Shown here: positions 4,258 through 29,376 of the stretch, piece after piece
Position numbering within the stretch: position 1 is the first letter of the stretch
Layout of the letters: each line of letters opens with the position of its first letter
Virus record (IMG/VR): IMGVR_UViG_3300023091_000001
Span: 1 to 53,124 of that record
DNA: 53,124 nucleotides
Reading direction: 5' to 3' (one strand)
DNA from: a virus
Taxonomy: Duplodnaviria > Caudoviricetes
Notes under the pieces: generated by a model
What the model saw: only the letters and a program-made list of their open reading frames with translations
Database searches by the model: none
Told to the model about the DNA's origin: nothing
Translations under genes and position numbers: made by a program

Positions 4258-4260
4258 AAC

Positions 4261-4593
4261 TTACACCATCTTTCCACTGACCAGTACAGTTAGAGAACCT
4301 ACTGAACCTGTACTAGGAACAAAGTGAGATCGAATATACGGAAAGGATAGGAGATTCATGTCAAAAAGCTCAGACCCAGCTACGGAAATTGGAAGCGTGA
4401 TTATCGCATTCCACGTAGTTTCGTCCAGACTCCCCTCAATTGTTAGGGTTCCTGCTGGAGTGCCTGTAAAATTGGCTTGCATTGATATATTATCAAGCTC
4501 GGTTATAGCTGTAATTAACGAGATTTGTTCAACGGCCATGCTAGCAGCTGAAAGTGTAGGGTATGGAGGAAGAAAATTCTTGCGTCCGCTCAT
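4261..4593 (-). CDS. Small beta-rich virion protein (putative fibre adaptor)
   Basis: AAGGAG RBS; paralog of 2395..2769. Confidence 0.7.
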   Translation of the reverse strand: MSGRKNFLPPYPTLSAASMAVEQISLITAITELDNISMQANFTGTPAGTLTIEGSLDETTWNAIITLPISVAGSELFDMNLLSFPYIRSHFVPSTGSVGSLTVLVSGKMV

Positions 4594-4663
4594 GGAGGCT
4601 CCTTATGGGCAAAAGGCTTGTAGACCTAAGCCTGAGCAGTTGTTGCTCTGTAAAAGGCCAAGA

Positions 4664-7456
4664 CTAACGGCGCTGTAGCTCGCGAGTCATGCTGGCCTGG
4701 CTAGGTGTCATGTCTAACATGTTGGTTTTACCAAGCTTTTTAGGAGTGCCTCTGCTAGGAGTATTAGCCTGCTGTAATTGCTGCGATGAGGAACGAGCAA
4801 ACACTGCCTGAGCCACGTTTATGGACGATGGGGATAAGGTAGAATCTAGGGGTTGCCCTAGTATTTGTGAGATTCCAGATCGCACACGGTACGGAATTTC
4901 TTCCTCTTTAGCCGTTCGTTTAGTGACTTGGTCCATAAGTTCACGTCCCATACGCGGAAGAGCGCTGGGATAGATGGCATTTACTGTATTTAAGTCCTGC
5001 TGTTGAAGTGTGCCCTGCTTTAAATGCTCTATAACTCGTGCTGGGTTATTGGCTATGTCCAACTGACGGTTGAATTGCTCTTGTGCAGCCTTACTAACTT
5101 CTCCACGGTCTAGTGGCCCGGATTTAACAACTTGCGGACGTATTGAGTTCAGATAGGTCGCAGCAGCTGTTAACGTTTTCGACAGTGACTGTTGAGAATC
5201 TGGGAGATAGTGAGCTAAAGTGGTATCCGAGTTATCCATAAGTTGCTGCGGATTTAGCTGCAAATCCTGAATCCGCTTATCTAACTTACCCCGCTCATTA
5301 TCAGACAGCTCTGGTATAACAGCCTTAGACCCCTTGTCGAAAACATTCTTTACGCTTTTGACCAACGCCCCATCGCCTTTAGAAGCTTGCTCAGCAAACA
5401 TAACCATTTTACGGAATGCTGCCGAATCCACAGCTGCGGGAGTGCCAAAAAACTTCAATAATCCGATTCTAACAGCATCGGGAACCTTAGTGCTTAGAAG
5501 ACGCATCGTCTCCCCTAAGGCGTACCCGGTGACCGGATTTTTACCCAACAACCATCCAAGGGCACCGGTGAGCTGAGCTGGCATGTGGCTTAGAACAGCC
5601 ATTAGCCCCTTACCGGCTTTAAAAGGGCTACCTTTGTAGTTTAATACCCCAGAAGCCTGACCAGCCCACCCCAGCTCTTGCTGTTGAGCGGGAGTTAATA
5701 TAAAGTTACGAACTTCCGGAGTTAAGGCAGCCATCTTTTTGGAGATTGTCCCGCTACTCACCACCTCACCCGGCTTCAACAATCTTGCTGGCGTGGAGGG
5801 TTTTAGAAGGAGATTGGTTATCATGCGCTCTTTAACAGCTTCGGCAGTTTGTGGAAACTCTCTCTGCAATAATTGTGTGAAATTAGCTCGATCGGTGGGG
5901 GCCATTCGTTGAGCAAACAATTCGGGTTGGTCCTCTGCCATTCGTGACACATTATCCAGAATAGTTTTAGGGCTATCCCCAGATACTTTGAGCTGCTGCT
6001 TAAGCATGCCCAGAGTGTCCATCAAGTTACCGTGCTCACCTTTAGCAGCATACCATGAATCCACTGCAGCTTGCCCTTCAGGAGAGTTCTGAAAGTGCTG
6101 TTCTACCCCCGTCTCGTAAGACTCATTATAGATTCGCGACATTTTGCTTTTCGCTGCCATTACGTCTTCAGGAGTTTTCCAATCCCAGGAAGCCAGATTC
6201 GATTTAGACTTCATCACATCGTCTAGGGTTTTTATATTATCTACATCCCGAATTGCTTGTTTGACTAACTTAGCTGCTGGAGTAGATGGGTTGATGGCGT
6301 AATCCTGGTCATACATCGTCTGCAATTTATCTTTAAGGAACACGTCTGGCTGGCTAACTTTTCCAGTCTCAGGGTCTTTCCACGGAGTCTCCGGTTTAAA
6401 CGGAGCATTTCCAATCTGCTCTTTAACTTGTTCATAAGCAGCGTCTCGTGCATCAATTTTATCTTGCATTTCTGACACTAAGGTGTCACCAATTTTCCCA
6501 CCGGCCTGTGCATTAGATGCTTCAGAAATATCTGCTACGTCCGCATCTGTTTTTCCCACCTGTTTTAAGGCATAACGAGAAATCTGCCCATTAGCATCCT
6601 CAGCAGCCTTAACCACTTTTGGCGCTTCCTTGTCCATCATTTGCTTGTATAGTCCTGACTCCAATGAGCCATCTGGGGCTAAACCGGATTGCGCTATTGG
6701 GTTCAATTCAGGACGTCCTATTGAAGCGGCTCCGCCTTCTGCGGCTGGAGCGGTTAAGCCTTCAAAGTCGGGATGATTGTATTTACGAGCAAGAGCTTCC
6801 AAAACGGAATTCGTAGACTCTGAGGCGGGGCTAGCTGTCCACAGGGCTTCAGTCCCTTGACCTAGATGACCAACCGCTGCTCCAAATAATCCGCTCAACC
6901 CAATATGCTGCGCGGCGCTAGAAACTGTTTGGTCAGGGTCGTTTGCAAACGCTTTGCTGACCTCGTCTGTAGCGCCAAGCAGCGCATTCTGAGCTGCCGC
7001 ACTAGCGGCTGCAGAACCAATCCCAACCTTACCTAGTCCGAGAGCTTCGGCGGCGGCCTCTCCTGCAATTCCTGCGCCTTCCAAAGCGCCAGCAATAGGC
7101 GCTCCCACATAACCGGATCCTAAAAGAGCTGCGGTGTCAGTGGTCATTTTTATAATGGGATTTAATTCTTCGGCTCGTTTTCTAATATCTTCGGCGGGTA
7201 CTCCGATTAGCCGTTCGAAACCGGTAGATAATCCGCCCGTAAGGGTGCTAGCAGCCGATTCAGCGGCTCCTTGCGCTTGCTGCAATGGGGTTCCATATTG
7301 GGCCGTTTGCTCCTCTTTCTGCAAACTCTGCAGTCCCATATCCAGCGGATCAGCTTGAGGCGTTGATGCAGCATCAGGTGTGGATTCAGGTTGAGGGGTG
7401 CCTTGTAAATTAAGAGGGTCAGAATTCTCTAGCAAAGCTTGGTCTAAAGCGTCCAT
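4664..7456 (-). CDS. Large internal virion/DNA ejection protein
   Basis: 930 aa, Ala/Gly-rich and helical; third of three coupled genes after the nozzle, the position of podovirus ejection proteins. Confidence 0.65.
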   Translation of the reverse strand: MDALDQALLENSDPLNLQGTPQPESTPDAASTPQADPLDMGLQSLQKEEQTAQYGTPLQQAQGAAESAASTLTGGLSTGFERLIGVPAEDIRKRAEELNPIIKMTTDTAALLGSGYVGAPIAGALEGAGIAGEAAAEALGLGKVGIGSAAASAAAQNALLGATDEVSKAFANDPDQTVSSAAQHIGLSGLFGAAVGHLGQGTEALWTASPASESTNSVLEALARKYNHPDFEGLTAPAAEGGAASIGRPELNPIAQSGLAPDGSLESGLYKQMMDKEAPKVVKAAEDANGQISRYALKQVGKTDADVADISEASNAQAGGKIGDTLVSEMQDKIDARDAAYEQVKEQIGNAPFKPETPWKDPETGKVSQPDVFLKDKLQTMYDQDYAINPSTPAAKLVKQAIRDVDNIKTLDDVMKSKSNLASWDWKTPEDVMAAKSKMSRIYNESYETGVEQHFQNSPEGQAAVDSWYAAKGEHGNLMDTLGMLKQQLKVSGDSPKTILDNVSRMAEDQPELFAQRMAPTDRANFTQLLQREFPQTAEAVKERMITNLLLKPSTPARLLKPGEVVSSGTISKKMAALTPEVRNFILTPAQQQELGWAGQASGVLNYKGSPFKAGKGLMAVLSHMPAQLTGALGWLLGKNPVTGYALGETMRLLSTKVPDAVRIGLLKFFGTPAAVDSAAFRKMVMFAEQASKGDGALVKSVKNVFDKGSKAVIPELSDNERGKLDKRIQDLQLNPQQLMDNSDTTLAHYLPDSQQSLSKTLTAAATYLNSIRPQVVKSGPLDRGEVSKAAQEQFNRQLDIANNPARVIEHLKQGTLQQQDLNTVNAIYPSALPRMGRELMDQVTKRTAKEEEIPYRVRSGISQILGQPLDSTLSPSSINVAQAVFARSSSQQLQQANTPSRGTPKKLGKTNMLDMTPSQASMTRELQRR

Positions 7457-18420: not shown

Positions 18421-19047
18421 CTATTTTTTTGTGTACTCTATAGCTTTGTCGCGTGTTTTAGGATTATCGAGAATTGCGATAGCTCGGTTGCAGCCATGGC
18501 AGAGTAGCCCACGAACCCGACCAGTTTTGTGATCGTGATCTACAAAGAGACCCCATTTACCTCTTGGGGGTCCTCCACAAATAGCGCATACTCCTTTTTG
18601 TTCATAAAGCATTTTAGAAAAATCGGCTGGTGTAAGCTTGTACTTTTGAAATCTCATCTTCTGGTAATTTTTGTGATTGTAAGACCTCATTTTTGCAATA
18701 TAGTGTTCACGATTTAACTCACGCCACTTACCCGTTGTTGCGTTTTTACAGTATTTGCACGTGTTCCTATGCCCGTCCGACATTCCGTAATCTCGATAAA
18801 AATTAATCATAGGTTGAGGATTGGATTGAGTACACCTAGGGTTAGTACAATTTTTTTCAGTTCTTTTTGCTTCAACAAAACCTTCATTAAACGCTTTGCG
18901 TAAGTTATCTCTTCTGTTTTTTTGCTGGGCTGCTTTACAGTATTTGCATTGACTCTGCAAACCGCTCTGGTTTCTTCTGTCAGATAAAAAATTAGTTTCT
19001 GATTGCGGATTTAGCTGATTGCAGTTCTTGTTACTACAGGTCTTCAT
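18421..19047 (-). CDS. Free-standing EndoVII-family homing endonuclease
   Basis: C-terminal QKGVCAIC..VDHDHKTGRVRGLLCHGCNRAI. Two tandem Zn modules (CSNKNC..CKYC and CTNPRC..CKYC). Start placed at MKTCS, after GGAGGT. Confidence 0.9.
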   Translation of the reverse strand: MKTCSNKNCNQLNPQSETNFLSDRRNQSGLQSQCKYCKAAQQKNRRDNLRKAFNEGFVEAKRTEKNCTNPRCTQSNPQPMINFYRDYGMSDGHRNTCKYCKNATTGKWRELNREHYIAKMRSYNHKNYQKMRFQKYKLTPADFSKMLYEQKGVCAICGGPPRGKWGLFVDHDHKTGRVRGLLCHGCNRAIAILDNPKTRDKAIEYTKK

Positions 19048-19115
19048 ATCTAATACCTCCAGAATCAATATAACATAGTCTGCATCACAACACAACCCGG
19101 ATACTCACAATAACC

Positions 19116-19144
19116 AAAAAGGGCTTGATCTTTCGACCAAGCCC
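19116..19144 (-). terminator. Rho-independent terminator after the MCP gene
   Basis: GGGCUUGGUC-GAAA-GAUCAAGCCC followed by UUUUU. Confidence 0.9.
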
Positions 19145-19169
19145 TCTAAGTTGCTTAACTTACTAAAGC

Positions 19170-19232
19170 TTATGCTGATAGTAAGCAGCGTCCGTTCCAA
19201 CCCGGAGCGTTGTTGCAAAGGTTTCCGTAGTA
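19170..19232 (-). CDS. Major capsid protein, exon 3
   Basis: Reads YYGNLCNNAPGWNGRCLLSA* and joins exon 2 in frame (EIRIG|YYGN). Preceded by the intron terminal G. Confidence 0.9.
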   Translation of the reverse strand, partial: YYGNLCNNAPGWNGRCLLSA

Positions 19233-19553
19233 CGTATTTGTTATCATTGAGTTTTTTATCTCAATTTCTTTGGCTTCGACTTTTGCCAAAGTCCAGCATA
19301 CATTTTCAATCTTTCGATTGTCATCCACTCTTGGAGATTTTTTATTCTGTGTAATCACAGTTTCAATCCCTACGCGTTACGCAGCCATCAACCAGTTACA
19401 GTCAATGGTTTGCTCGGTATTAGCATCACAGCTTTCACCGATTTTGGACGATTTTACATCGGCAACTACGGATTTGCGGAAACAGCCTTCCAAGGCTTGC
19501 AATCCATGAGTTACAGTCACAATGCTCGAATCCGATAACTCTATGATATTATT
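19233..19553 (-). ncRNA. Group I intron 2 (321 nt, ORF-less, IA-like)
   Basis: P1 AUCGGU/GCCGAU with U-G at the splice site; P10 UCCGUAGU/ACUACGGA; P AAAUCGGUGAA; Q AAUACCGAGC; P3 UCGUCCA/UGGAUGA; P7 GCGUA/UAUGC; P8 CAAUC-GAAA-GAUUG; ends in G. Confidence 0.92.
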
Positions 19554-20627
19554 ACCGATGCGGATTTCGAGCGCATCTGCCGTTCCCACGCGTAACCCTT
19601 CGAGACCTTCGAGTCCATACGTAAGCACGTGTGGCATTTTACCGAGGGATTTCAGCTTCCATGTGTCGAGCTGAAGCATGAACGCGTTCTTCGCGGGGCA
19701 GTTTCTGTCAGCGATGACAGTCATCTTCCCGGTCTGACCGCTGAGCTGTATCCCTTCGAAAGAGATATCAACTTCGTCATGTTTCACGTCAACATACTGG
19801 ATCTTCGCACCCAACGACTTCTCAAGGCTGGCATAAGAGACTGGGTTAATGAAAACATAGTCACTTGATGCACCCATGAGGTACATTTGGGCGTTCAGGT
19901 CGATCAGAGCTTCCTCGATGGGCCTATCATTCAGAACCTGATAGACACCAGAAAGCCTTTGGTCGGCTGAGCGGTTAACATTCCAGAACGAGTCAGTGCT
20001 TGCGACAGAGGTCGGAATCCACGCGGCCATTCCAGAAATCTTCAGGAAGGAGCCTGTGGTCGACGCACCAGCCGCTGGCAAATCACCGTCCACGCTGATG
20101 AAGCTGAGGGCGGCCCAGTTGCCTGACAATGAGCTGGAGACTGAGGTGCTGGAGATACCAGTCACGATGCCATTGATTCGGTCAATGCCCGTGATCTGAA
20201 CGGTGTCGGCTGAAGGAGCGCTGCCGTCGGTCGCAGACGCGACGAGCAACATTCCGACTTCCAACTTCGTGGTATCGGCGGCGTTTGTGATTGTGAAAAC
20301 TACAACGTTGGTTGCACCTGAGGTGGTCGGAGCAGCCGCGATTTGGGCGCGGGTTCCTGTGCCGTCACCAAACAGATCGGACGCGAGGTCGTTCGTGATA
20401 TTCCGAAAACCAGTGTCCATGTGGAGTTTGCATTCATCCACGAATGCGCCAGCGTTGTCCTTGGTGGCTTCGAGAAGTTCGTTCGTGATCGAAACAACTT
20501 CGTAGTTGCTGACACGATAAACCAGGAAGCTCGCCACGGCAGCGGCGGTCTGTTGTGATTGGGCGTTACTGAACGTTGCACTACGGCCCTGTGGGGCACC
20601 GTATACTAGGGGCACTGGGAAATACTT
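19554..20627 (-). CDS. Major capsid protein, exon 2
   Basis: 358 codons from KYFPVPLVYG to ADALEIRIG. Capsid-like content; follows the scaffold gene. Confidence 0.9.
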
Positions 20628-21345
20628 CAAATATCAGCTAGTTAGCTGACTTTGTTATCGCCGGGGCTCTTTATCCCAGGCTTCTTAAACTTCTTTAAGT
20701 ATGCGGCTAATTGTTCAATCATTTCGAGACTATCTTGCATATATCCTAATGCTGGATTACACCGATCACACAATAAAGCTCTCACGACTCCAGTCTGATG
20801 ATCGTGATCTACAGCAAATTTGCGTTTCATTTGGTCTTGCACGATTCCACATGATGCACAACATCCGTTTTGAGCATTAAACATGGTATTGTACTGCTCA
20901 ACACTAATCCCGTAATGCCGTTTTAAATCATGCTTAAAATACGTTTGTTTTCGACTTTCTGGATGCTTGGCATTCCAAGCGAGTCTAAATTCACGTTTAC
21001 AGGATTTACATTGGCTGTTGAACCCATCGGAATGTTGCTTATCTTTGTGAAAAGCGCTAGTCTCTTTTTCTATCTTACACTTGCTACATACTTTTAGTTT
21101 AAGTTCAGAGCACATTTTTTGACCTCCACCATCTACAAAGGTATCACATATCATCCGATACCGCAATACTTTTGTTTCGGTCTCAGTCAATCGGACACTC
21201 TTGGGAGCATTATATTCTGGCATTGCCAGGGTCAACTCCTGCTCGTTACGCTGATTATGTCTTTTTACTTCCATAATTTAGCTCGGTATTTGCATCTCAG
21301 CATTCACCGATTTTGTCCAATTTAACGTTGGCAAGTTTATCGTTC
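20628..21345 (-). ncRNA. Group I intron 1 (718 nt, IA-like) with a homing endonuclease ORF in P9
   Basis: P1 GUUGGU/GCCAAC; P10 ACUU/AAGU; P AAAUCGGUGAA; Q AAUACCGAGC; P3 AAUUGGACA/UGUCCGAUU; P7 GAGCA/UGCUC; terminal G at 20628. Confidence 0.93.
20642..21115 (-). CDS. Intron-encoded EndoVII-family homing endonuclease (157 aa)
   Basis: GGAGGT RBS then MCSELKLKVCSKC..CKSC, followed by QNGCCASC..VDHDHQTGVVRALLCDRCNPALG. Confidence 0.9.
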   Translation of the reverse strand: MCSELKLKVCSKCKIEKETSAFHKDKQHSDGFNSQCKSCKREFRLAWNAKHPESRKQTYFKHDLKRHYGISVEQYNTMFNAQNGCCASCGIVQDQMKRKFAVDHDHQTGVVRALLCDRCNPALGYMQDSLEMIEQLAAYLKKFKKPGIKSPGDNKVS

Positions 21346-21498
21346 ACCAACAAACCCTTGGGTTGATTCGTCCTTAGGGACTAGAGCCAAAAACGGATTC
21401 CGTTTAAAGATCAGGTCCTTCATGACGTAACTGGGATCGTCGTATAGTTCCTTCAGTGCCGCGATTTGGTTACTAACATTGGCATATACAGCAGCCAT
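21346..21498 (-). CDS. Major capsid protein, exon 1 (spliced product 429 aa)
   Basis: GAGGA RBS; reads MAAVYANVSNQIAALKELYDDPSYVMKDLIFKRNPFLALVPKDESTQGFVG (51 aa). Absent from the ORF track. Confidence 0.9.
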
Positions 21499-21559
21499 GT
21501 GATGTATCCTCGCACTGAGCTAGTCCTATATTCAGCACCATGCTAAATATCTGACATCG

Positions 21560-22630
21560 CTATGATTTTAACTGTCCATTGAATGCTGCAATTGCCCGTG
21601 CTCGTCGCTCTTCCATCGTCAATGGAGGTCTATGTGATGACTGCGCTATGCTGTGCGATAGAGTGCGACTTGGTTGCTGCTGGGGAGTAACTGGCTGATT
21701 CCCTGAGTCCGGCTGCGCCAGGGGAGCTAACTTCGACTTCACTTTGTCTAGTGAAGCCATCCGGATTGCTTCGTCGAGTAAGTACGTTTCGACTTCCTTG
21801 CAAGCATCCTCGGTTGTCAGCAAAACGCCATCACTGTCGAACGTTTGCTTTATTAACTCGACAACGCTTTCTTCTGCGCTCATCGCCTTTATGGTCGCGA
21901 AATCATTGTTTCTTTCGACCTGAACTTTAACGTCGTTCCTGACTTGATTAAGCGCGTTCTCGTAAGCTGTTTGCTGCGAGTTTTTCCACTCTTGCTGCGT
22001 CGACTCTTGGCTCTTTTGGATCTTGGCTATCTCAGACTTGAGTTCCGCAATCTGCTTCGCTTCTGGCGAGGGCGGATTGAGGAGTGATTCGGTCAGACGG
22101 TTGTAGTCAATCCCATGCTGTTGCAGAGTTCCCAAAGTGTCCTGTTGTAGTTGTCGAATGACTTCGGCTCTGGCTTCTTCACGAATCGTTTGCTCACGAG
22201 TTTGAAAGGCCTTTTCCCTAGCGTCGATATCGGCTTTCTCTTGCCGCATTTGCTTTTCCCTTCGGGCAAGGGCTGCAAATCTAGCTGAGTCAGCGGGAGG
22301 TTGAGGCTTGCTTGTTACCGGTGTCGCTGCTTTCGGTTCCTCACTAGGGGCGGAAACTTGTGGTACGGAACTCGGCTCCCCTGATTTCGCCGTAGATGCC
22401 CCTACAATCGACGCCGATGTTTCCTGAGTAGGTTGAGTAGGGCTGGACGCTCCGGATGCACTGGCGACCCCTTCTGACGCAATTGCTGGGGTACTGGGCG
22501 CTGGGGCCGTGGGCGGCGGTGTTGGGTGCGCGGTGTGTTTCTGTGTGTGGGCTTGGATGGTAGCGTTCGGAAGACCGCTGCGGCCAGGGGCCACTTCCGT
22601 GTGTGCGCTACGTGATGTAACGATTGGCAT
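21560..22630 (-). CDS. Capsid scaffolding protein
   Basis: P/A/S-rich N-terminus, coiled coil, C-terminal EERRARAIAAF; immediately upstream of the MCP gene; AAGGAG RBS. Confidence 0.8.
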   Translation of the reverse strand: MPIVTSRSAHTEVAPGRSGLPNATIQAHTQKHTAHPTPPPTAPAPSTPAIASEGVASASGASSPTQPTQETSASIVGASTAKSGEPSSVPQVSAPSEEPKAATPVTSKPQPPADSARFAALARREKQMRQEKADIDAREKAFQTREQTIREEARAEVIRQLQQDTLGTLQQHGIDYNRLTESLLNPPSPEAKQIAELKSEIAKIQKSQESTQQEWKNSQQTAYENALNQVRNDVKVQVERNNDFATIKAMSAEESVVELIKQTFDSDGVLLTTEDACKEVETYLLDEAIRMASLDKVKSKLAPLAQPDSGNQPVTPQQQPSRTLSHSIAQSSHRPPLTMEERRARAIAAFNGQLKS

Positions 22631-22806
22631 AAATAGCTCTCCTTAAGTTTTGTGTTGCTAGCTTGCCGCAATTCAGGTGCGACGCCTGGAATGCACAAAT
22701 TGTGAATTCATGAAAGGCAGTATGTGTGTGTATTTGCCTTATATGCGTTATGCGCCGCCGCAGGGCTCGGGGGGAGAGGAAATGAGAGTAGGGCGGCCAA
22801 CTCAAC

Positions 22807-22893
22807 TAGTAATATATACTCAATATCGCGTAGTTAAGTAGTGAAGCCTTTATATACTACTTAGTAATATATACATACTCAATATCGCGTAGT
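22807..22893. repeat. Imperfect direct repeat pair with an intervening inverted repeat
   Basis: TAGTAATATA(TACA)TACTCAATATCGCGTAGT at 22807 and 22862, with TAAGTAGT...ACTACTTA between them. Confidence 0.8.
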
Positions 22894-22951
22894 ACAGCTA
22901 TTAAGCTCGAAATCACTTGCAATCCACAACGAAATAAGTTAGTATTAATTC

Positions 22952-23239
22952 ATGGTCGAACAAGAAAAGCCTAAATCGTTCGACCAGCGGAATTCTCGGA
23001 GGAGCACGATGTCCCGAAAATCGAATCAAAAACAGAACAAAGCGGGTTTCACAAAAACTTGCCGGACGTGTAGAGCTAAGTTGCCTCTTGAAAAATTTTT
23101 TTACTCGGAGCTTACGGGGGACTACCGTTGGGCGAACTGCGCCAAGTGCGCTGCAGCTAATATTGCTAACGAAAAGTACGGCTCCCTGGAAACGCAGGAG
23201 TTGTGGTTTCATAGATTGGACTGGTTACTACTTGGGTAG
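22952..23239 (+). CDS. Zinc-finger protein (CxxC...CxxC)
   Basis: KTCRTC..LEKFFY..NCAKC resembles the Zn modules of the endonucleases, but there is no nuclease domain. Confidence 0.55.
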   Translation: MVEQEKPKSFDQRNSRRSTMSRKSNQKQNKAGFTKTCRTCRAKLPLEKFFYSELTGDYRWANCAKCAAANIANEKYGSLETQELWFHRLDWLLLG

Positions 23240-23248
23240 GAGGTTTTT

Positions 23249-23857
23249 ATGCCAGGACACGCATTAGGTCGCGTAGCAATTTATCTGCGCTGCAGCACAA
23301 ACGAACAAACCACGGATTCCCAGCGGGTCGAGCTGCAGGAGTACGTTGCTCATCGCATGTACGCTACTTTGGAAATTTTTGATGACGCTGGCCACTCCGG
23401 GGCTTCAACCAATCGTCCGGAAATGAAACGGCTGATGAAACTGGCTCGTGAGCGGAAGATTGATACCGTGGTAGTATACAAACTCGACCGCTGGTTTCGC
23501 TCTCTGAGTGAGACCGTGTGGACCCTGAAAGAGTTGACCGAGTTGGGGATTTCGTTTATCGCTCTAAAAGACCAGATTGATTTAACCACTGCGGTCGGAA
23601 GGCTGACTGCAAATATGCTAGCGAGCTTTGCGGAGTTCGAGCGCGAGATTATTTCCGAACGAGTTCGAAGCGGGTTGAAGGCGGCTAAAGCTAAGGGCAA
23701 GCGCTTGGGGGCGAAACCCAAAGACGTGGACATGACGCAAGCTCGTGCTCTGATTGCGTCCGGTAAGTCTTACGGAGAGACTGCTAAGATTACGGGACTA
23801 CCGGCTAATTTTATCTATCGCCGACTAAATCCCAAGGCTCCAGAGACTGTGGAGTGA
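23249..23857 (+). CDS. Small serine recombinase (resolvase/invertase family)
   Basis: YLRCST catalytic Ser, SGA..RP, VYKLDRWFRS, AEFEREIISERVRSGL..AK.KG..LG, C-terminal HTH; GGAGG RBS. Confidence 0.95.
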   Translation: MPGHALGRVAIYLRCSTNEQTTDSQRVELQEYVAHRMYATLEIFDDAGHSGASTNRPEMKRLMKLARERKIDTVVVYKLDRWFRSLSETVWTLKELTELGISFIALKDQIDLTTAVGRLTANMLASFAEFEREIISERVRSGLKAAKAKGKRLGAKPKDVDMTQARALIASGKSYGETAKITGLPANFIYRRLNPKAPETVE

Positions 23858-23933
23858 ACTGATTCTAATTTTCATTCCTACGAAAATATAATTTGTTATT
23901 TTGTAAATACCTGATATCACTCTTCTATAAAAT

Positions 23934-23961
23934 TTGACATCTTAAAATTGACCTCTAAAAT
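23934..23961 (+). promoter_or_regulatory. Putative sigma70 promoter
   Basis: TTGACA-N16-TAAAAT. Confidence 0.45.
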
Positions 23962-24371
23962 TTCTAGGCTGGAGTTTGCAGTGATCGAGGTCTTTTGAGA
24001 TCACAAACCCGGTCCTACCCCTCCCCCTCCCCCGGTGGGGCCTCTCCGCTTGTGTGTCCGCAAACATCCCGCTCTCTCGCGTGTGCAAATACCTTACACA
24101 ACCTGCGTTCATTCTATTAACCCCGTGCATTCGCAAGCCTGACACTTGTGCCTGGTACTTTCAATCTACATACTATGTTCTGCGGGATGCGGCCGTGTGT
24201 TACAATGCCCAAGGCTCAGCGTCAAACAGTTAGGGAATGTGAATGTATTGGCTGTAAAGTCACGTGGATTATAAGGCATTGTACGTTAAATGAGGTTATA
24301 GCCTTACTTTAGGGCTAATTTAGATGTGATGTGTTCAATCAAGGCTTAAAGTGAAAGGTACGCATCAAAGT

Positions 24372-24455
24372 TGATGCATATTATGATGCATATTATGATG
24401 CGTATTATGATGCATATTATGATGTGTATTACTATGCGTATTATGATGCATATCA
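24372..24455. repeat. Tandem 12-bp repeat, 7 copies (TGATGCATATTA consensus)
   Basis: Seven consecutive near-identical units in a non-coding region. Confidence 0.9.
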
Positions 24456-24792
24456 ACCTTCATATTCCATGCATATCAGTACACCCTCTACATGCACATC
24501 ACTACACACATTTTCAGCTGGTTTATGCACACACACACACGCGCGCGCAACTGCACTACACTGCTATATAAGTATACCACAATTAAACTGCTGTACATGT
24601 ATACCATCCTCATACCAATAGCTCGCTGTACATCAAACGCTTCACACCCAATGCAATTGTGGCAATCAGCACAATGCTGCATACCAACTTGACATTGTAC
24701 ACTACTCGCACATCACGCACGACGCACGCACAAACTGCAATTGTGGTGTCTAAAACTTCACGCATTCACACAATTGGGTGTGCGTGGCGGAT

Positions 24793-24808
24793 TGGCATGG
24801 CGGATGCA
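24793..24808 (+). promoter_or_regulatory. Putative sigma54 (-24/-12) promoter of the early gene block
   Basis: TGGCATGGCGGATGCA (GG-N10-GC), about 47 nt upstream of ATG 24855. Confidence 0.5.
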
Positions 24809-24854
24809 ATACTTGTTTAATAGAACAGACGCACACGAACACGGGAGATTCATT

Positions 24855-25037
24855 ATGATTATAATTGCGTTAATATCGACAGTTTGCTTGATTCAGGCTA
24901 TACGGACGATGCATATCAGCCATCTTGCAGAGCGCGAACACAGACGCATCGACGCTGAATGCGCAAAAGCCCTTCGACTAGGGTTGTACAATCGCCGCAG
25001 TATTGCACATCATTACACGATAACCGATACGAAGTAA
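24855..25037 (+). CDS. Small membrane protein (60 aa)
   Basis: GGGAG RBS; hydrophobic N-terminus MIIIALISTVCLI. Confidence 0.6.
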   Translation: MIIIALISTVCLIQAIRTMHISHLAEREHRRIDAECAKALRLGLYNRRSIAHHYTITDTK

Positions 25038-25047
25038 GGAGTTTAAT

Positions 25048-25140
25048 ATGAGTGCATTTACAGTATTCTGTATCTTGGTCATACTCGGATGTTGGAAGAG
25101 CGACGTGCAAGATTCAATAGAGCGGTTAAACCGCAAGTAA
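25048..25140 (+). CDS. Small membrane peptide (30 aa)
   Basis: AAGGAG RBS; MSAFTVFCILVILGCWKSDVQDSIERLNRK. Confidence 0.55.
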   Translation: MSAFTVFCILVILGCWKSDVQDSIERLNRK

Positions 25141-25152
25141 GGGAGCCGACTG

Positions 25153-25242
25153 ATGATTATCTTGGCAACCGCATACAGCGCATTCTGGATTACATGGTTC
25201 TTATTTGATTGGGCTTGTGACTGGTATTGGCCCAAATATTAA
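25153..25242 (+). CDS. Small Trp-rich membrane peptide (29 aa)
   Basis: GGGAG RBS; MIILATAYSAFWITWFLFDWACDWYWPKY. Confidence 0.5.
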   Translation: MIILATAYSAFWITWFLFDWACDWYWPKY

Positions 25243-25257
25243 AGAAAGGAACATAAT

Positions 25258-25788
25258 ATGAAAAGAGTAACTTATAAACAAGCCTGTAAAGGACTAGAAC
25301 TTTGGGAGCGTGCGGATAACTACACTGGTCCTGACTTGGGAGAATACTTCACTGGTCCCGGTCGGTCACGTGATTCTCAGTCACTAGAAGAATCTAACTT
25401 TGCAAGTGCCCTTGAACGATTGGGTGGGGAACACGAAGGTGTTGAGGTGCATAGATTTGGGCATTGGGGTTGCGGCTGGATTGAACAAATACTAGTCCAC
25501 AAGTCTAACAAGAAAGCTGTGATAGAGTTATATAAGATTAAGAAAGATTTAGAGAACTATCCCGTGCTCAACGATTTAGACTACAGTGAACGTGAGGGTG
25601 ATGACCTAACTGAATATGTATCTAACTGCCACGGAGAATTAGATGCGAAACAACAGCGCGCGTTCATTGACGCTGTATACGACTTAGGGTGTGACTACAC
25701 TGACGCAGACGGCTCTATTTATATAAGAAAAGCCGATGTTGCGCGCGCATATGCACTTATCGGCTATAACCCAATTGAAAATAAGTAA
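25258..25788 (+). CDS. Phage early hypothetical protein
   Basis: AAAGGA RBS; RDS..LEESNF, HWGCGWIE and YPVL motifs. Confidence 0.75.
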   Translation: MKRVTYKQACKGLELWERADNYTGPDLGEYFTGPGRSRDSQSLEESNFASALERLGGEHEGVEVHRFGHWGCGWIEQILVHKSNKKAVIELYKIKKDLENYPVLNDLDYSEREGDDLTEYVSNCHGELDAKQQRAFIDAVYDLGCDYTDADGSIYIRKADVARAYALIGYNPIENK

Positions 25789-25797
25789 GGAGATGAT

Positions 25798-26334
25798 ATG
25801 AATACACACAATAAACTTAAGTTACAGGCTTGGACCGATAATCTATCGAAACTGAAGAAGGAATTTATTACAGAGAGTTCGAAGCTCGAAACAGCCATAG
25901 CGGATATCTGGGGCGCAACATATAACAACTCTGCAAGTTTACATCAAGATATCCATAACCTCAACAAGTCGAACGAATATGGATGCGACGACATGGGCAT
26001 ATACAGCTGGGTACGCCTCGAAAAGTTTGAGTTGCCCACCGACCCAGCGGCTCTTAAGGCACTTGAGAATTATTTAAACGATTGTGGCTATGGTGTAGAT
26101 GTAGAGAACAAAGCTCTACTAGAGTACCAATGTCAGAACATCCAGATAAATGAGGACGGTGACGTATTCGATACCGACTCCGGCAAGTTTGTGATTCAAT
26201 CTAACGAATACGCGACTCGGAGAGAGCGCAATGCACTTATATTGGCGTATATGAAAATCCAGGGCGTCTGTTATCCAGTATTCCGCGTAGACAATTATGG
26301 CACCGTTAACCGTATCGACATAACCAAGAAATGA
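25798..26334 (+). CDS. Hypothetical early protein
   Basis: AAGGAG RBS, 178 aa. Confidence 0.75.
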   Translation: MNTHNKLKLQAWTDNLSKLKKEFITESSKLETAIADIWGATYNNSASLHQDIHNLNKSNEYGCDDMGIYSWVRLEKFELPTDPAALKALENYLNDCGYGVDVENKALLEYQCQNIQINEDGDVFDTDSGKFVIQSNEYATRRERNALILAYMKIQGVCYPVFRVDNYGTVNRIDITKK

Positions 26335-26342
26335 GGTGATTT

Positions 26343-26603
26343 ATGATACATAATGCATTCAAAGTATTCTACGTGCAAAAGGATGGTAGATTGACTCATA
26401 CTACGTGGTATGTGGAGACTGACGCAGAGGCTATAAATTGTGTACTGGAACATTTTCACCGCACAGAGCCTGTATTCCTTAAGGTTATCCCAGTTACAGT
26501 GTGTCAAGGTTGCCATAAAACAGTACTATCGGTCGATGCGTCGAAGATGCAATGTAAGAGCTGCAATCAGCTTGATATGGAACTTGAAGACATGATGGAG
26601 TAA
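26343..26603 (+). CDS. Hypothetical protein with C-terminal Zn ribbon
   Basis: CQGC...CKSC; GAGGTG RBS. Confidence 0.7.
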   Translation: MIHNAFKVFYVQKDGRLTHTTWYVETDAEAINCVLEHFHRTEPVFLKVIPVTVCQGCHKTVLSVDASKMQCKSCNQLDMELEDMME

Positions 26604-26650
26604 TGGATACAAAGGTGAATTAGGTTTTATTTATAAAGAATGGGTGATTT

Positions 26651-27346
26651 ATGAGAAATATATCTAAAGAAGAATTGGCTGTAATACTCAAAAATCATCG
26701 GGATTGGCTACGGGACAATTCTAAAGGAATTCGCGCCAACTTGAGCGGTGCCGACTTGAGCGGTGCCGACTTGAGACGTGCCGACTTGTGGGATGCCGAC
26801 TTGTGGGATGCCGACTTGAGACGTGTCAACTTGAGCTATGCCAACTTGCGCTGTGCCAACTTGCGCTGTGCCAACTTGAGCTGTGCCAACTTGAGCTGTG
26901 CCAACTTGAGTGGTGCCGACTTGAGCTATGCCAACTTTAGCGGTGCCGACTTGAGCTATGCTAACTTGAGTCGCTCCAACTTGAGCGGTGTCATTGGATT
27001 AGATAGGCGCAGCATAGTTCCAGAAGCTGGTCAATTCATTGCATATAAGAAAGTAGAGGATGATGACTGTAATAAGTATATATTGACACTATTGGTATCC
27101 AAACATTCACCTAGAATTGGCGGTCTTACTGAAAGAAAATGTAGGGTTCAGAGAGTTAAAGTGCTCAAGGCTGAGACTTTAGATGGCAAGACAACGTCAC
27201 TTACTAGATTTTACTCCTCACATACCCGTGATTTTCAATACCATGTGGGACAGTGGGTTAAGTCTAGTTTCAATCGGGACATTCGCGAAGTGTGCACGTC
27301 AGGCATTCATTGTTTTATAACGAAACAGGAAGCGATTGATTATTAA
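26651..27346 (+). CDS. Pentapeptide-repeat protein
   Basis: About 17 A(D/N)Lxx repeats encoded by a 15-bp DNA array (about 26733-26990); C-terminal CTSGIHCF domain. Confidence 0.9.
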   Translation: MRNISKEELAVILKNHRDWLRDNSKGIRANLSGADLSGADLRRADLWDADLWDADLRRVNLSYANLRCANLRCANLSCANLSCANLSGADLSYANFSGADLSYANLSRSNLSGVIGLDRRSIVPEAGQFIAYKKVEDDDCNKYILTLLVSKHSPRIGGLTERKCRVQRVKVLKAETLDGKTTSLTRFYSSHTRDFQYHVGQWVKSSFNRDIREVCTSGIHCFITKQEAIDY

Positions 27347-27361
27347 CGAAAGGAACATAAT

Positions 27362-27547
27362 ATGACAAATCTAGAATACCAGAAAGCTGTCAAGATGGTT
27401 GAAGGGTTAGAACAGATACGTGTCGCGGTAGAACGGGCTCATGGGGCAATTCAGTTTGACACTGATGCCTACAAGAATGTTCTAGAATACCTTGAAACTG
27501 AGCTTGAATACTTTGAAGAACAACTAGAAGAAAAGAGGACTGTATGA
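27362..27547 (+). CDS. Hypothetical protein
   Basis: AAAGGA RBS; acidic and helical. Confidence 0.7.
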   Translation: MTNLEYQKAVKMVEGLEQIRVAVERAHGAIQFDTDAYKNVLEYLETELEYFEEQLEEKRTV

Positions 27548-27702
27548 AAGATGATGAACTCCGTATATGCGTTCACTGCCAAGAACCAATCCAAACTGTA
27601 TCGGCGGGCGACGAAATATGGGACTGGTGCGAGTCGTGCCAACTAGTCGAAGGTGGGACTATAACAGTCGATGCCGAACAGTGGGAAAGGGAGGAGATAT
27701 GA
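27544..27702 (+). CDS. Small zinc-finger protein (52 aa; not in ORF track)
   Basis: MKDDELRICVHC..WCESC..; ATGA overlaps at both ends. Confidence 0.7.
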   Translation: MKDDELRICVHCQEPIQTVSAGDEIWDWCESCQLVEGGTITVDAEQWEREEI

Positions 27703-27929
27703 TATACATGTCCATATCATGCCATACAGGTTATGTCAAGTGGTACAATGAGAACAAGGGCTATGGCTTTCTGGAGTCAGAGGGTGAGGACATATTCTTT
27801 CACTACAGCGCGATAGACAAGCCAAATGTAACGCAATACCTTGGCGACATCGAGGGGAAGCCAGTTGCGTTCACACAAGTGGAAGGTCCAAAAGGGCCAC
27901 AAGCGTATACGGTAGAATTCATCGAGTAA
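27699..27929 (+). CDS. csp: Cold-shock domain protein
   Basis: GYVKWYNENKGYGFL (RNP1), DIFFHYSAI (RNP2), GPKGPQA. Start placed at the ATGA overlap. Confidence 0.9.
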   Translation: MIYMSISCHTGYVKWYNENKGYGFLESEGEDIFFHYSAIDKPNVTQYLGDIEGKPVAFTQVEGPKGPQAYTVEFIE

Positions 27930-28026
27930 CAAGCGCCAATGGCCCGAGAATGTACGCGCGTGTGTGAACCCTTAGGTTTATATGACCCTATAATCCACGT
28001 GGATTGCGGAGCCCTTGTAACGCGAA

Positions 28027-28242
28027 ATGGAGGGTACCATGTTTGAAGTCACAGAAATCTACCACGTATACGGCCAAGGGCGTAGATTCAGGATTAGATT
28101 CGTTAACGGCCTGCACGTTAACAGCATCTTTCAGGATGAAGTTGTAACGAAGATTTTCTTAGATAATGAAGTAGTCCTAGACGTCGTAGAGCCTGTGGCC
28201 TATGTCCTGGCATGCATAGAGAAAGATTGTAGAAGGGAGTAA
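28027..28242 (+). CDS. Small protein, FlbD/SwrD-like pattern
   Basis: MFEVTE..FVN..HV.SI...TKIFL....VVEP. Confidence 0.5.
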   Translation: MEGTMFEVTEIYHVYGQGRRFRIRFVNGLHVNSIFQDEVVTKIFLDNEVVLDVVEPVAYVLACIEKDCRRE

Positions 28243-28246
28243 GGGT

Positions 28247-28423
28247 ATGCGTGAGATAAAATTAGATGAATTGACACGTGAATGCGACGCTCTAGAACAG
28301 CGCATTCGGGCTCTCGGCAAGCGGGTTGACGCTTTCGCGGTCAAGGTACGAAAATTTGAACAGGCTTGCAAACAATATAACCAATCCAAGAAAGGGATAA
28401 ATCATGTTTATAGAGATAACTGA
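28247..28423 (+). CDS. Coiled-coil hypothetical protein (58 aa; not in ORF track)
   Basis: MREIKLDELTRECDALEQRIRALGKRV...; fills the gap in the + strand operon. Confidence 0.6.
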   Translation: MREIKLDELTRECDALEQRIRALGKRVDAFAVKVRKFEQACKQYNQSKKGINHVYRDN

Positions 28424-28619
28424 ATATAAGTCAAAAACAAGTCAGGGCAAAGTAATATTAAACGCTGATGCCATCGACGTTGTGTTCCCATTTAACTCTC
28501 GCGCACTGATATACTTCAAGGGCAACTACAAAGCTGCATTAGAAGTCGCTGAAACGTATGAGCAAGTTAGGTCTATGCTGGGTATAGGTATGGCGTGTCT
28601 ACCCCTAGATGTACCCTAG
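28404..28619 (+). CDS. Small protein, FlbD/SwrD-like pattern
   Basis: MFIEITE..VILNADAIDVV..ALIYF..EVAETYEQV. Confidence 0.55.
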   Translation: MFIEITEYKSKTSQGKVILNADAIDVVFPFNSRALIYFKGNYKAALEVAETYEQVRSMLGIGMACLPLDVP

Positions 28620-28897
28620 GCCAGGGGAATAAATAATTGGCCACTAATAGGGTATATTGTAAAACTACCCCTCCCTATTTGAATGGTGGGGGAAAAATTC
28701 CGGGGTTATGCCCCCTATTCAATTGGGAGGCCCCCTAGTCGGACTAGGATGGTCATAGGAGGTAAAATGATATTATCACCTGCAGCACTTGCAGTGGTCA
28801 TGTGTCACTCGCTCCTTGTTGGATGGTGCGTTGGTCGGTACCAAGGATACATGAAGGCCAAATCTATTTATACCAGTAATAAGGAGGAGAGCTTCAG

Positions 28898-29041
28898 ATG
28901 AAATACACTAAAGAAGTAGAAGAGTTTCTTAAGCTACACAAGATACGTTTTAAGGATTTAACCAAAGCCGAGATCGACGAGGTTTTGATCAAAGAATGGG
29001 TCCGGTTTCTGGAGTTGAAAAAAGAGACTAAGGGGGTATAG
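28898..29041 (+). CDS. Hypothetical protein (47 aa)
   Basis: GGAGGAG RBS; MKYTKEVEEFLKLHKIRF... Confidence 0.55.
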   Translation: MKYTKEVEEFLKLHKIRFKDLTKAEIDEVLIKEWVRFLELKKETKGV

Positions 29042-29042
29042 T

Positions 29043-29354
29043 ATGAAATACATCCCTATATTCATACTATTAAGTCTCCTGTTGTCAAGTGTTGTTAAGT
29101 GCGAGGAGAACTCTACCAATATTCCCGTAGATCTTGGTTTAGCAGCTGGGCTTTCGATAGGTTTGTACACCGTATGTCACACTACGTTTGGCACAAAGGA
29201 TAAATACGGATGTATAATTGGCAGTCTTATCGTCACAAATATATTGATGGTCTGTAACATGAACTCTCACGATACCACACGGGTGTTGGATACTAAATTA
29301 TGGACACAAGTCGTTGGGTCTACAATCGTCATCCCAATAGCGTTTTTACCTTAG
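29043..29354 (+). CDS. Membrane protein
   Basis: Signal-like N-terminus and several hydrophobic segments. Confidence 0.65.
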   Translation: MKYIPIFILLSLLLSSVVKCEENSTNIPVDLGLAAGLSIGLYTVCHTTFGTKDKYGCIIGSLIVTNILMVCNMNSHDTTRVLDTKLWTQVVGSTIVIPIAFLP

Positions 29355-29376
29355 AGGCGTTCTTATGAAAAACCCA

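Follow-up and report, generated by a model that had tools for sequence, protein, structure and literature searches.

The predicted major capsid gene of a tailed phage from peat is interrupted by two introns, both of which are precisely removed from RNA in nature. The phage is represented by IMG/VR virus record IMGVR_UViG_3300023091_000001, a complete record of 53,124 bases (CheckV 100%) that was analyzed over its full length and is called the window here. All coordinates of its features are window positions, and the capsid gene, both introns and the two nuclease genes discussed below are located on the minus strand. We consider it very probable that both inserts are spliced group I introns, and we hold with the same high confidence that the capsid gene of this 53-kb SU10-like phage has received two independent insertions by a single family of IA-like, self-splicing group I introns.

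The gene consists of exon 1 (21346–21498; 51 codons, M...GFVG), exon 2 (19554–20627; 358 codons, KYFP...EIRIG) and exon 3 (19170–19232; 20 codons, YYGNLCNNAPGWNGRCLLSA, followed by a stop; YYGN...LLSA). Between them lie intron 1 (20628–21345; 718 nucleotides (nt); IA-like, without P2) and intron 2 (19233–19553; 321 nt; same ribozyme family, without an open reading frame (ORF)). An earlier interpretation made from the letters alone, referred to here as the sequence-only reading, had proposed that these exons join in frame at GFVG/KYFP and EIRIG/YYGN, each junction following a GGU codon. All of this is found in the sequence, and the spliced coding sequence of 1290 nt yields a protein of 429 amino acids (aa). 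When the three exon peptides were aligned separately with nine intronless homologues of 427–434 aa, they abutted without gap or overlap: exon 1 aligned with residues 1–49/50, exon 3 with the conserved C-terminus of all homologues, and the joints fell at GFAG/KYIP and EIRIG/YYGN. The spliced protein is therefore contiguous with its intronless homologues at both junctions.

Exon 2 scores 30.3 bits against Pfam SU10_MCP (PF17236; cut-off 24.1), and 2728 capsid homologues at E ≤ 0.001 were found among the 8000 candidates scored. These homologues carry PF17236, and most of the 120 best listed are 426–434 aa long. Both the Pfam gathering score and the full-length colinearity place the product in the SU10-type major capsid family, which agrees with the gene identity first proposed, and by these comparisons the split gene is the major capsid gene. 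The window also encodes an SU10/P22-type portal, a large terminase and a family A DNA polymerase.

Direct evidence for removal of the introns was obtained from public RNA libraries. The window stretch is present in 23 of the 24 public runs listed; six of these are RNA runs, and the samples come from peat, ponds, soil and freshwater. Assembled contigs from three RNA runs (X4, X5 and X7) and one DNA run (X1, possibly the source sample) were compared with the window over 19050–21650. In X4, a 2103-nt contig (record 3) matches 19213–19232, 19554–20627 and 21346–21650 with no mismatches, which covers exon 2 completely and skips exactly 321 and 718 bases, that is, both introns. In X5, which comes from another study, a 1920-nt contig (record 5) joins 20627 to 21346 with 255 nt on its shorter side. 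The skipped stretches start right after U and end in G (...UUUG and ...UACG), and the 5′ junctions have no positional ambiguity. A spliced product joined at exactly the predicted junctions is thus present, and precise excision with exon ligation in vivo is seen for intron 1 in two studies and for intron 2 in one study, with a 20-nt short side. The DNA run X1 is colinear with the window and holds the intron-containing form only. X4 also contains an unspliced contig over intron 1 (20610–21353), whose word depth is 25.1 vs 806 for the joined contig, and X5 contains low-depth pieces inside intron 1. In both RNA runs, the joined contig therefore has the greater depth, where depths are given per contig and are no measure of splicing efficiency. 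X7 yielded exon 2 pieces only, which cover neither junction and bear on splicing neither way.

Both inserts carry the features expected of group I introns at their splice sites. The 5′ exon ends in U, this U forms the U·G of P1, the intron ends in G and a P10 helix is present. The internal guide of intron 1 is located at 21327–21336, where the P1 strand GCCAAC (21332–21327) pairs with the exon end GUUGGU and the P10 strand ACUU (21336–21333) forms 4 base pairs (bp) with AAGU at the start of exon 2. The guide of intron 2 lies at 19458–19471, with the P1 strand GCCGAU (19463–19458) pairing with the exon end AUCGGU and the P10 strand CCGUAGU (19471–19465) forming 7 bp with ACUACGG, bases 2–8 of exon 3. 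The P1 pairings were read from the sequence. The U-G P1, the P10, the identical P/Q motifs and the terminal G that the sequence-only reading had listed are all there, and the P4 strands are likewise identical between the introns. It had further stated that P3 and P7 covary. Both helices do, but the pair quoted in support (GAGCA/UGCUC in intron 1 vs GCGUA/UAUGC in intron 2) is P7 only; P3 is a separate helix, UUGGAC/GUCCGA in intron 1 vs UCGUCC/GGAUGA in intron 2.

The core of intron 1 (21188–21323) comprises the 5′ strand of P3, P4, P5, P6, the 5′ strand of P7 (GAGCA, 21244–21240), P7.1/P7.1a and the 3′ strand of P3 (21196–21191); the 3′ strand of P7 (UGCUC, 21112–21108) follows after an enlarged P8. 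The core of intron 2 (19318–19454) has P3 at 19451–19446, P3′ at 19326–19321 and the 5′ strand of P7 (GCGUA) at 19375–19371, with a GAAA hairpin as P8 (19320–19307) and the 3′ strand of P7 (UAUGC) at 19300–19296. In the standard group I pathway, each guide would pair with the end of the upstream exon (P1, U·G) and the start of the downstream exon (P10), and the intron would fold into its P3–P9 core and be removed by two transesterifications.

A distant blastn search against phage genomes located related intron cores in other phages. In Clostridioides phage phiCD211 and related phages, one family member lies in the interval between the minor tail gene and the tape measure gene, directly upstream of an annotated Intron_gpI. 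Others are located in Bacillus phage PJN02, within a split RecD-like helicase gene that additionally contains an endonuclease and a ‘mobile intron protein’; in the crAss-like phage cr6_1, where an ‘intron-encoded endonuclease’ is adjacent; and in several unannotated phage records. The phiCD211 member (L001, 2460–3035) is itself unannotated, and the region appears to contain two group I introns of different kinds in tandem.

The family fold was derived by eye from seven of eight outside sequences; the eighth (L006) lacks the 5′ half and was excluded. It contains P2, P3, P4, P5, P6, P7, P7.1, P7.1a, P8, P9 and P9.1, with P3 crossing P7 as a pseudoknot and with A-rich J3/4 and J8/7. The fold has 11 helices with 65 pairs; of its 439 cells, 97.5% form standard pairs, vs 31–42% when the 3′ partners are slid by 1–3 columns; the structure was drawn from these same sequences, which makes the slid control a favorable one for the fraction of cells paired and the compensatory counts the stronger measure. 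By that measure, 43 of the 65 pairs are changed on both sides (5 of 6 in P3, 2 of 6 in P7), and no shuffle out of 500 reached any of the five measures. In the model, P7 has a covarying A/G126–U/C247 pair, a bulged base 127 and an invariant G128–C246 pair, an arrangement that would be consistent with a G site.

R1, a covariance model that covers P3 to P3′, was built only from these seven introns of other phages and contains no window sequence. Run over both strands of the 53-kb window with filters off, R1 gave exactly two matches, each of full model length: 19318–19454 in intron 2 (119.3 bits, E = 9.4e-29) and 21188–21323 in intron 1 (118.8 bits, E = 1.2e-28). Together with the covariation-supported fold, these matches bear out the view of two related group I introns. 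When 24 family members were aligned to R1, 96.6% of cells paired and 25 of 30 pairs were compensatory in an alignment that is fitted to the model; all five pairs of P7.1 and two of three in the inner hairpin were among those with compensatory changes. The P4–P6 and P3–P8 domains, the P3/P7 pseudoknot and the A-rich J8/7 of a group I core are all present. For intron 2, the minimum-energy fold (−91.4 kcal/mol, z = −5.44, with 0 of 100 shuffles as good) reproduces the P4/P5, P6, P7.1, P8 and P9 hairpins.

Extra helices past the 5′ strand of P7 are part of the rules for assignment to subgroup IA. Such helices are found here as stacked P7.1/P7.1a rather than as two hairpins. In the available text of three papers, a helix pair after the P7 5′ strand is the trait that assigns phage introns to this subgroup (PMC3428280, PMC1995217, PMC3984707). 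Other explanations for the inserts were rejected: an intein is ruled out by in-frame stops, a group II intron by the small size of the 321-nt insert, which has a group I core, and an assembly error by the recurrence of the same interrupted gene in JGI, ENA and Logan assemblies.

The cores of introns 1 and 2 are 64.0% identical (87/136), and they rank only 14th and 18th of 22 among each other's relatives. This rules out a recent duplication, and the core comparison argues that the two introns are separate invasions by one family. The introns and both nuclease genes have a GC content of 39–40% (0.398 for intron 1), vs 54% in exon 2 (0.543).

We then compared the two insertion points, site 1 and site 2, across related capsid genes. 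Among the best 80 of 224 IMG/VR loci with an alignment to the capsid family, 70 gave one full-length match, two were cut by contig ends and eight were interrupted, all eight with R1 matches; one search pattern spanned site 1, so this survey may undercount introns there. L015, the nearest relative identified (81% aa and ~75% nt identity), has no insert at either site, at precisely the codons where the window carries its introns. A homologous intron with a nuclease gene is located exactly at site 1 in L018 (50% aa identity) and L115, whereas such an intron lies 12 nt downstream of site 1 in L031 and L032 and 14 nt downstream in L033. Intron number and insertion site therefore differ from phage to phage. 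An intron-less closest relative, mostly uninterrupted relatives and shifting sites together look like the work of selfish mobile (homing) elements with a conserved target.

Protein databases carry traces of the same interruptions. Nine of the 120 best listed protein matches have lengths of 373–389 aa and N-termini no more than a few residues from the site 1 junction; these short homologues are probably gene calls truncated by introns. All four members of the window gene's own protein cluster, from JGI, ENA and Logan assemblies, derive from the interrupted gene, and no spliced form is among them. In the same 90% cluster, protein P0122 (ENA, five contigs), a near-identical variant of the window's product, departs from the capsid sequence past ...LEGLEG, 13 codons ahead of site 2, which hints at a different interruption in a sister strain. 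Small introns of ~190–270 nt with a canonical GACU(A/G)/(U/C)AGUC-type P7 are also present near the 3′ end of the capsid gene in L014 (~4169–4440) and L031 (~4551–4740), at YGNLICSA/PGWNC and YYG/N. R1 has no match to these, which points to a second intron family in the same genes.

Intron 1 begins GAACGAUAA, which brings an in-frame stop after two codons, and ends ...AUAUUUG. Its coding content indicates that it is a mobile unit encoding a predicted homing endonuclease of the Endo VII-motif (DHHRN) type. A 210-aa form of the ORF overlaps the core and matches Pfam Endonuclease_7 (1e-23) and PHROG endonuclease VII (3e-35). Because these matches begin only at residue 54–57, the likely gene is located at 20642–21115, in P9, and encodes 157 aa plus a stop. 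Its start codon (21115–21113) is the conserved J8/7 AUG, and a GGAGG (21127–21123) located 7 nt upstream falls in the 3′ strand of P8. The ORF spans P7′, the enlarged P9, the conserved P9.1 hairpin and the family 3′ motif, and it ends in an extra 3′ hairpin 14 nt short of the splice site. The homologous ORFs of L018, L031, L032, L033 and L115 are arranged alike and likewise start at this AUG just past the core. With both the start codon and the ribosome-binding site placed within the ribozyme, translation of the nuclease would be held down while the ribozyme is folded.

The two nuclease genes of the window score 83.4 and 66.3 bits against Pfam Endonuclease_7 (PF02945; cut-off 23.6), which places both in this family, and a CX2C...DHDH...R...CX2C..N pattern is visible in the alignment of the intron 1 ORF with its paralogue. 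The Endo VII-motif (DHHRN) homing endonuclease family, typified by F-CphI, is described in the accessible part of PMC6083498.

Intron 2 ends ...AAAUACG and has no nuclease gene of its own. Its P1 loop holds a 95-nt structured insert (within 19458–19553), and in PJN02 and cr6_1 an endonuclease ORF is located at the same position, upstream of the guide; by this analogy, the insert may have been left behind by a nuclease gene that was lost. A terminator-like hairpin on the minus strand (19118–19147; 13 pairs, GAAA loop, T run) begins 22 nt past the capsid stop codon. Behind this hairpin, 122 nt from the capsid stop, is a free-standing gene for an Endo VII-motif (DHHRN) nuclease (18421–19047; 208 aa from the ATG at 19047, GGAGG upstream; Pfam Endonuclease_7 2.4e-18), with no intron core near it by R1. 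This predicted protein is a paralogue of the intron 1 ORF (32% identity over 128 aa, E = 2e-16) and a possible trans-acting partner of the ORF-less intron. Intron 2 would accordingly be either immobile or mobilized in trans by the free-standing paralogue.

Several observations weigh against the interpretation of both inserts as spliced group I introns. A search with the Rfam group I model, the check that the sequence-only reading had named, failed: RF00028 has no match in the window at its gathering score, nor at E ≤ 10 in 19000–21700. The only Rfam match in that segment (CRISPR-DR9, 19360–19373, 17.3 bits, E = 2.8) was taken as chance. RF00028 also misses the family members in L001–L003, and in a control the canonical intron of phiCD211 scored 41.7 bits against the cut-off of 50 while the adjoining family member was missed, so the Rfam negative reflects the reach of the model and is weak as counter-evidence. 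The joint at intron 2 is seen in one contig, with its 20-nt short side at the contig end, where sides shorter than 30 nt are less safe. In-frame reading into an intron core is unusual for phage introns. The frame of exon 2 nevertheless stays open for 59 codons into intron 2 (19377–19553), through the P1 insert, the guide and P3–P6 to J6/7, and ribosomes on unspliced RNA would enter the core. This open frame could be chance, or it could reflect a ribosome–ribozyme conflict or an alternative C-terminus made from unspliced RNA. Finally, contigs show neither strand nor level and leave room for intron-less DNA in an RNA library. The joined contigs could then come from an intron-less variant of the same phage, as DNA or as transcripts, rather than from splicing. 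Intron-less alleles do exist in relatives, and contigs cannot tell RNA from contaminating DNA. However, the joined contigs match the window at all 1399 aligned bases, while the nearest intron-less relative found is only ~75% identical in DNA; the DNA run X1 holds the intron-containing form only; all four members of the protein cluster, across JGI, ENA and Logan, come from the interrupted gene; and the same intron 1 joint appears in two studies. An intron-less variant as the source of the joined contigs is therefore extremely unlikely in our estimate.

The sequence-only reading had also suggested that the need for two splicing events could time capsid production, so that the introns would act as a regulatory device that delays or tunes synthesis of the capsid protein. 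Two features would suit such a role: the start of the nuclease gene is buried in ribozyme helices, so that RNA folding and translation are coupled, and intron 2 has no early in-frame stop. In contrast, the closest relative, L015, has neither intron and 70 of the 80 relatives are uninterrupted, insertion sites and intron numbers vary among the others, and the joined contig has the higher depth in X4 as well as in X5. These contrary points fit neutral selfish elements, and we consider a timing function very unlikely. A further proposal is compatible with two selfish group I introns and would add to that explanation. Namely, intron 2 and the free-standing nuclease might form a collaborative-homing pair like the psbA intron of phage S-PM2 and F-CphI. 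This arrangement is suggested by the layout, in which an ORF-less intron is separated by 63 nt of exon and a 122-nt spacer from a free-standing nuclease of the F-CphI family, as that family is described in the accessible part of PMC6083498. Two IMG/VR loci with relatives of the free-standing nuclease (35–39% identity) have no family intron nearby, however, and L014, the one relative with an element at site 2, has no such nuclease gene downstream. On balance, we regard the pairing as possible but somewhat unlikely, and equally doubtful is its presumed working, in which intron-less capsid alleles would be cleaved by the nuclease at site 2 and the intron would shield the genome that carries it.

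A distinct class of short inserts came to light in the related capsid genes. Thirteen intron-bearing capsid genes were examined (the window, L014, L018, L031, L032, L033, L060, L072, L077, L091, L109, L110 and L115), and nine of them contain mini-inserts of 33–58 nt, ten in total, with two in L014 and none in the window. They are located at L014 2147–2184 and 4085–4142, L031 2770–2805, L032 1795–1831, L033 2687–2724, L072 2564–2611, L091 2461–2500, L109 121–157, L110 2466–2499 and L115 1753–1785. Mini-inserts contain stop codons or put the downstream sequence out of frame. Every one is preceded by U and has G as its last base, and removal at these borders (U/...G/) exactly restores the conserved protein. 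None has a P3–P9 core, and all ten are located 20–114 nt upstream of a full-length intron. No mini-inserts were seen in uninterrupted capsid genes, as judged by match lengths.

The borders of the mini-inserts were supported by an unbiased search for the deletion that best restores the protein, in which 8 of 10 junctions follow U and end in G. The same search is off by one codon in the first insert of L014 and in L109, where the query protein lacks that residue. Mini-inserts also appear to carry their own guide, a P10 strand directly followed by a P1 strand, although a strict rule (no bulges allowed; G of the P1 strand facing the U of the splice site, and the P10 strand immediately before the P1 strand) holds for only part of the ten. 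Under this rule, none of 2000 shuffles reached the guide score of L014 4085–4142 (9+7 bp), L031 (8+6), L110 (8+7) or L115 (7+6), and 35 of 2000 reached that of L072. At the off-by-one junctions, the score was reached by 9 of 2000 shuffles for L109 and 51 of 2000 for the first insert of L014. L032, L033 and L091 fail the strict rule and by eye fit only with one bulge or mismatch.

We hypothesize that mini-inserts are deletion derivatives spliced by the neighboring ribozyme, which would be the most economical reading. In more specific terms, they may be non-autonomous, core-less mini group I introns that use full-length family ribozymes as helpers, much as miniature inverted-repeat transposable elements (MITEs) depend on a full-length transposon, a proposal that we make tentatively and rate at slightly below an even chance. 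The neighboring or excised full-length ribozyme could, with about the same reservation, dock the foreign P1/P10 helices and splice in cis or in trans. No natural case of core-less mini group I introns was found in the literature searched. Translational bypass of the T4 gene 60 type was considered and rejected, as several mini-inserts split a codon (T/AC, GT/C) and matching take-off and landing codons are missing. A separate observation concerns L077, which has two full family introns like the window and, exactly at window site 1 (GFAG/KYIP; ~2590–2680), a 6-nt insert with TAA. Its downstream intron has its own guide and, as read by eye, a second guide in J2/3 complementary to the site 1 exon ends.

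Elsewhere in the window, further split genes were looked for in the terminase, the DNA polymerase and neighboring genes, and none was found; no tRNA genes were found in the window either. A block of ~6.7 kb with small plus-strand ORFs (22631–29376) is located between the portal gene and the scaffold-like and capsid genes, all of which are on the minus strand. Contigs of relatives measure ~35–39 kb, vs 53 kb here, and the block may be an insertion.

Capsid-gene group I introns are already in print, from LittleE, Tuc2009 and crAss-like phages, and the premise of novelty, for which the sequence-only reading had noted that phage group I introns are mostly described in DNA-metabolism genes, is out of date on the available text of two papers (PMC3706429, PMC7886860). 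In mycobacteriophage LittleE, the capsid-gene intron contains an HNH gene and was established by reverse transcription PCR (RT-PCR) and by N-terminal sequencing across the junction (Pope et al., 2013, PMC3706429); the capsid-gene group I intron of lactococcal phage Tuc2009 is cited in the same paper. As far as the accessible part of that paper goes, LittleE resembles the window in that an endonuclease-carrying intron interrupts the major capsid gene of a tailed phage, the 5′ exon ends in U and the intron in G, close relatives lack the intron, and spliced mRNA is present, having been demonstrated in LittleE (PMC3706429). It differs in having one intron, of a type given as ‘most likely group I’, with its nuclease gene in the opposite direction (PMC3706429). 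The window, in contrast, has two introns, a co-directional Endo VII-motif nuclease gene in P9 and a covariation-supported fold. Its RNA evidence consists of environmental metatranscriptome contigs, as opposed to the RT-PCR reported in the available text on LittleE (PMC3706429).

In crAss-like phages, the accessible text states that group I introns are ‘typically’ found in the major capsid protein gene of the Delta group, and one such ORF of the Zeta group is in five fragments (Yutin et al., 2021, PMC7886860). These Delta and Zeta capsid genes, likewise known from metagenomic data, share with the window the presence of several group I introns per gene; they belong to Bacteroidetes gut phages with another capsid family, and in the part of the paper available their introns are recognized through intron-type protein domains, without RNA evidence (PMC7886860). 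The intron lists in its supplements might already include members of the ribozyme family described here (PMC7886860). The crAss-like phage cr6_1 does carry such a member, in another gene.

More than one IA-type intron in a single phage gene, as in the window, is also said to occur in orf142 of Staphylococcus phage Twort, reportedly with three group I introns. The P7.1/P7.2 of Twort is described in the available part of PMC1995217, and the extension after P7 in the window introns is of this type. The gene is a different one, the window introns have stacked P7.1/P7.1a vs the two separate hairpins of Twort, and the Twort introns are recognized by standard models whereas this family escapes RF00028. 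For S-PM2, the accessible text describes ‘collaborative homing’ of the psbA intron with the free-standing F-CphI, for which cleavage specificity and protection by the intron were shown (PMC6083498). The resemblance to intron 2 is one of layout: in both systems, a group I intron that lacks an ORF lies beside a free-standing nuclease whose C-terminus carries the Endo VII (DHHRN) motif (PMC6083498). Unlike S-PM2, the arrangement in the window is known from gene layout alone, and the same capsid gene holds a second intron with its own nuclease gene.

The consequences for annotation are practical ones. In gene calls, this capsid gene is broken up into a 53-aa stub and an ORF of 412/417 aa that continues into intron 2. 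A phage intron family that is widespread and missed by the Rfam group I model therefore damages the annotation of a key viral marker gene, and R1 recovers this family. The case has three merits: environmental RNA evidence, a family assignment free of circularity and a widespread ribozyme family that is now defined. The metatranscriptome contigs are rare evidence from the environment that both introns are precisely removed from the most highly expressed late gene of an uncultured phage. Both introns would be selfish passengers, which efficient splicing would make tolerable in such a gene. If the mini-inserts are spliced as proposed, they would constitute a new class of non-autonomous, ribozyme-dependent introns, and they would show that in nature a group I core can act on substrates which supply the guide themselves.

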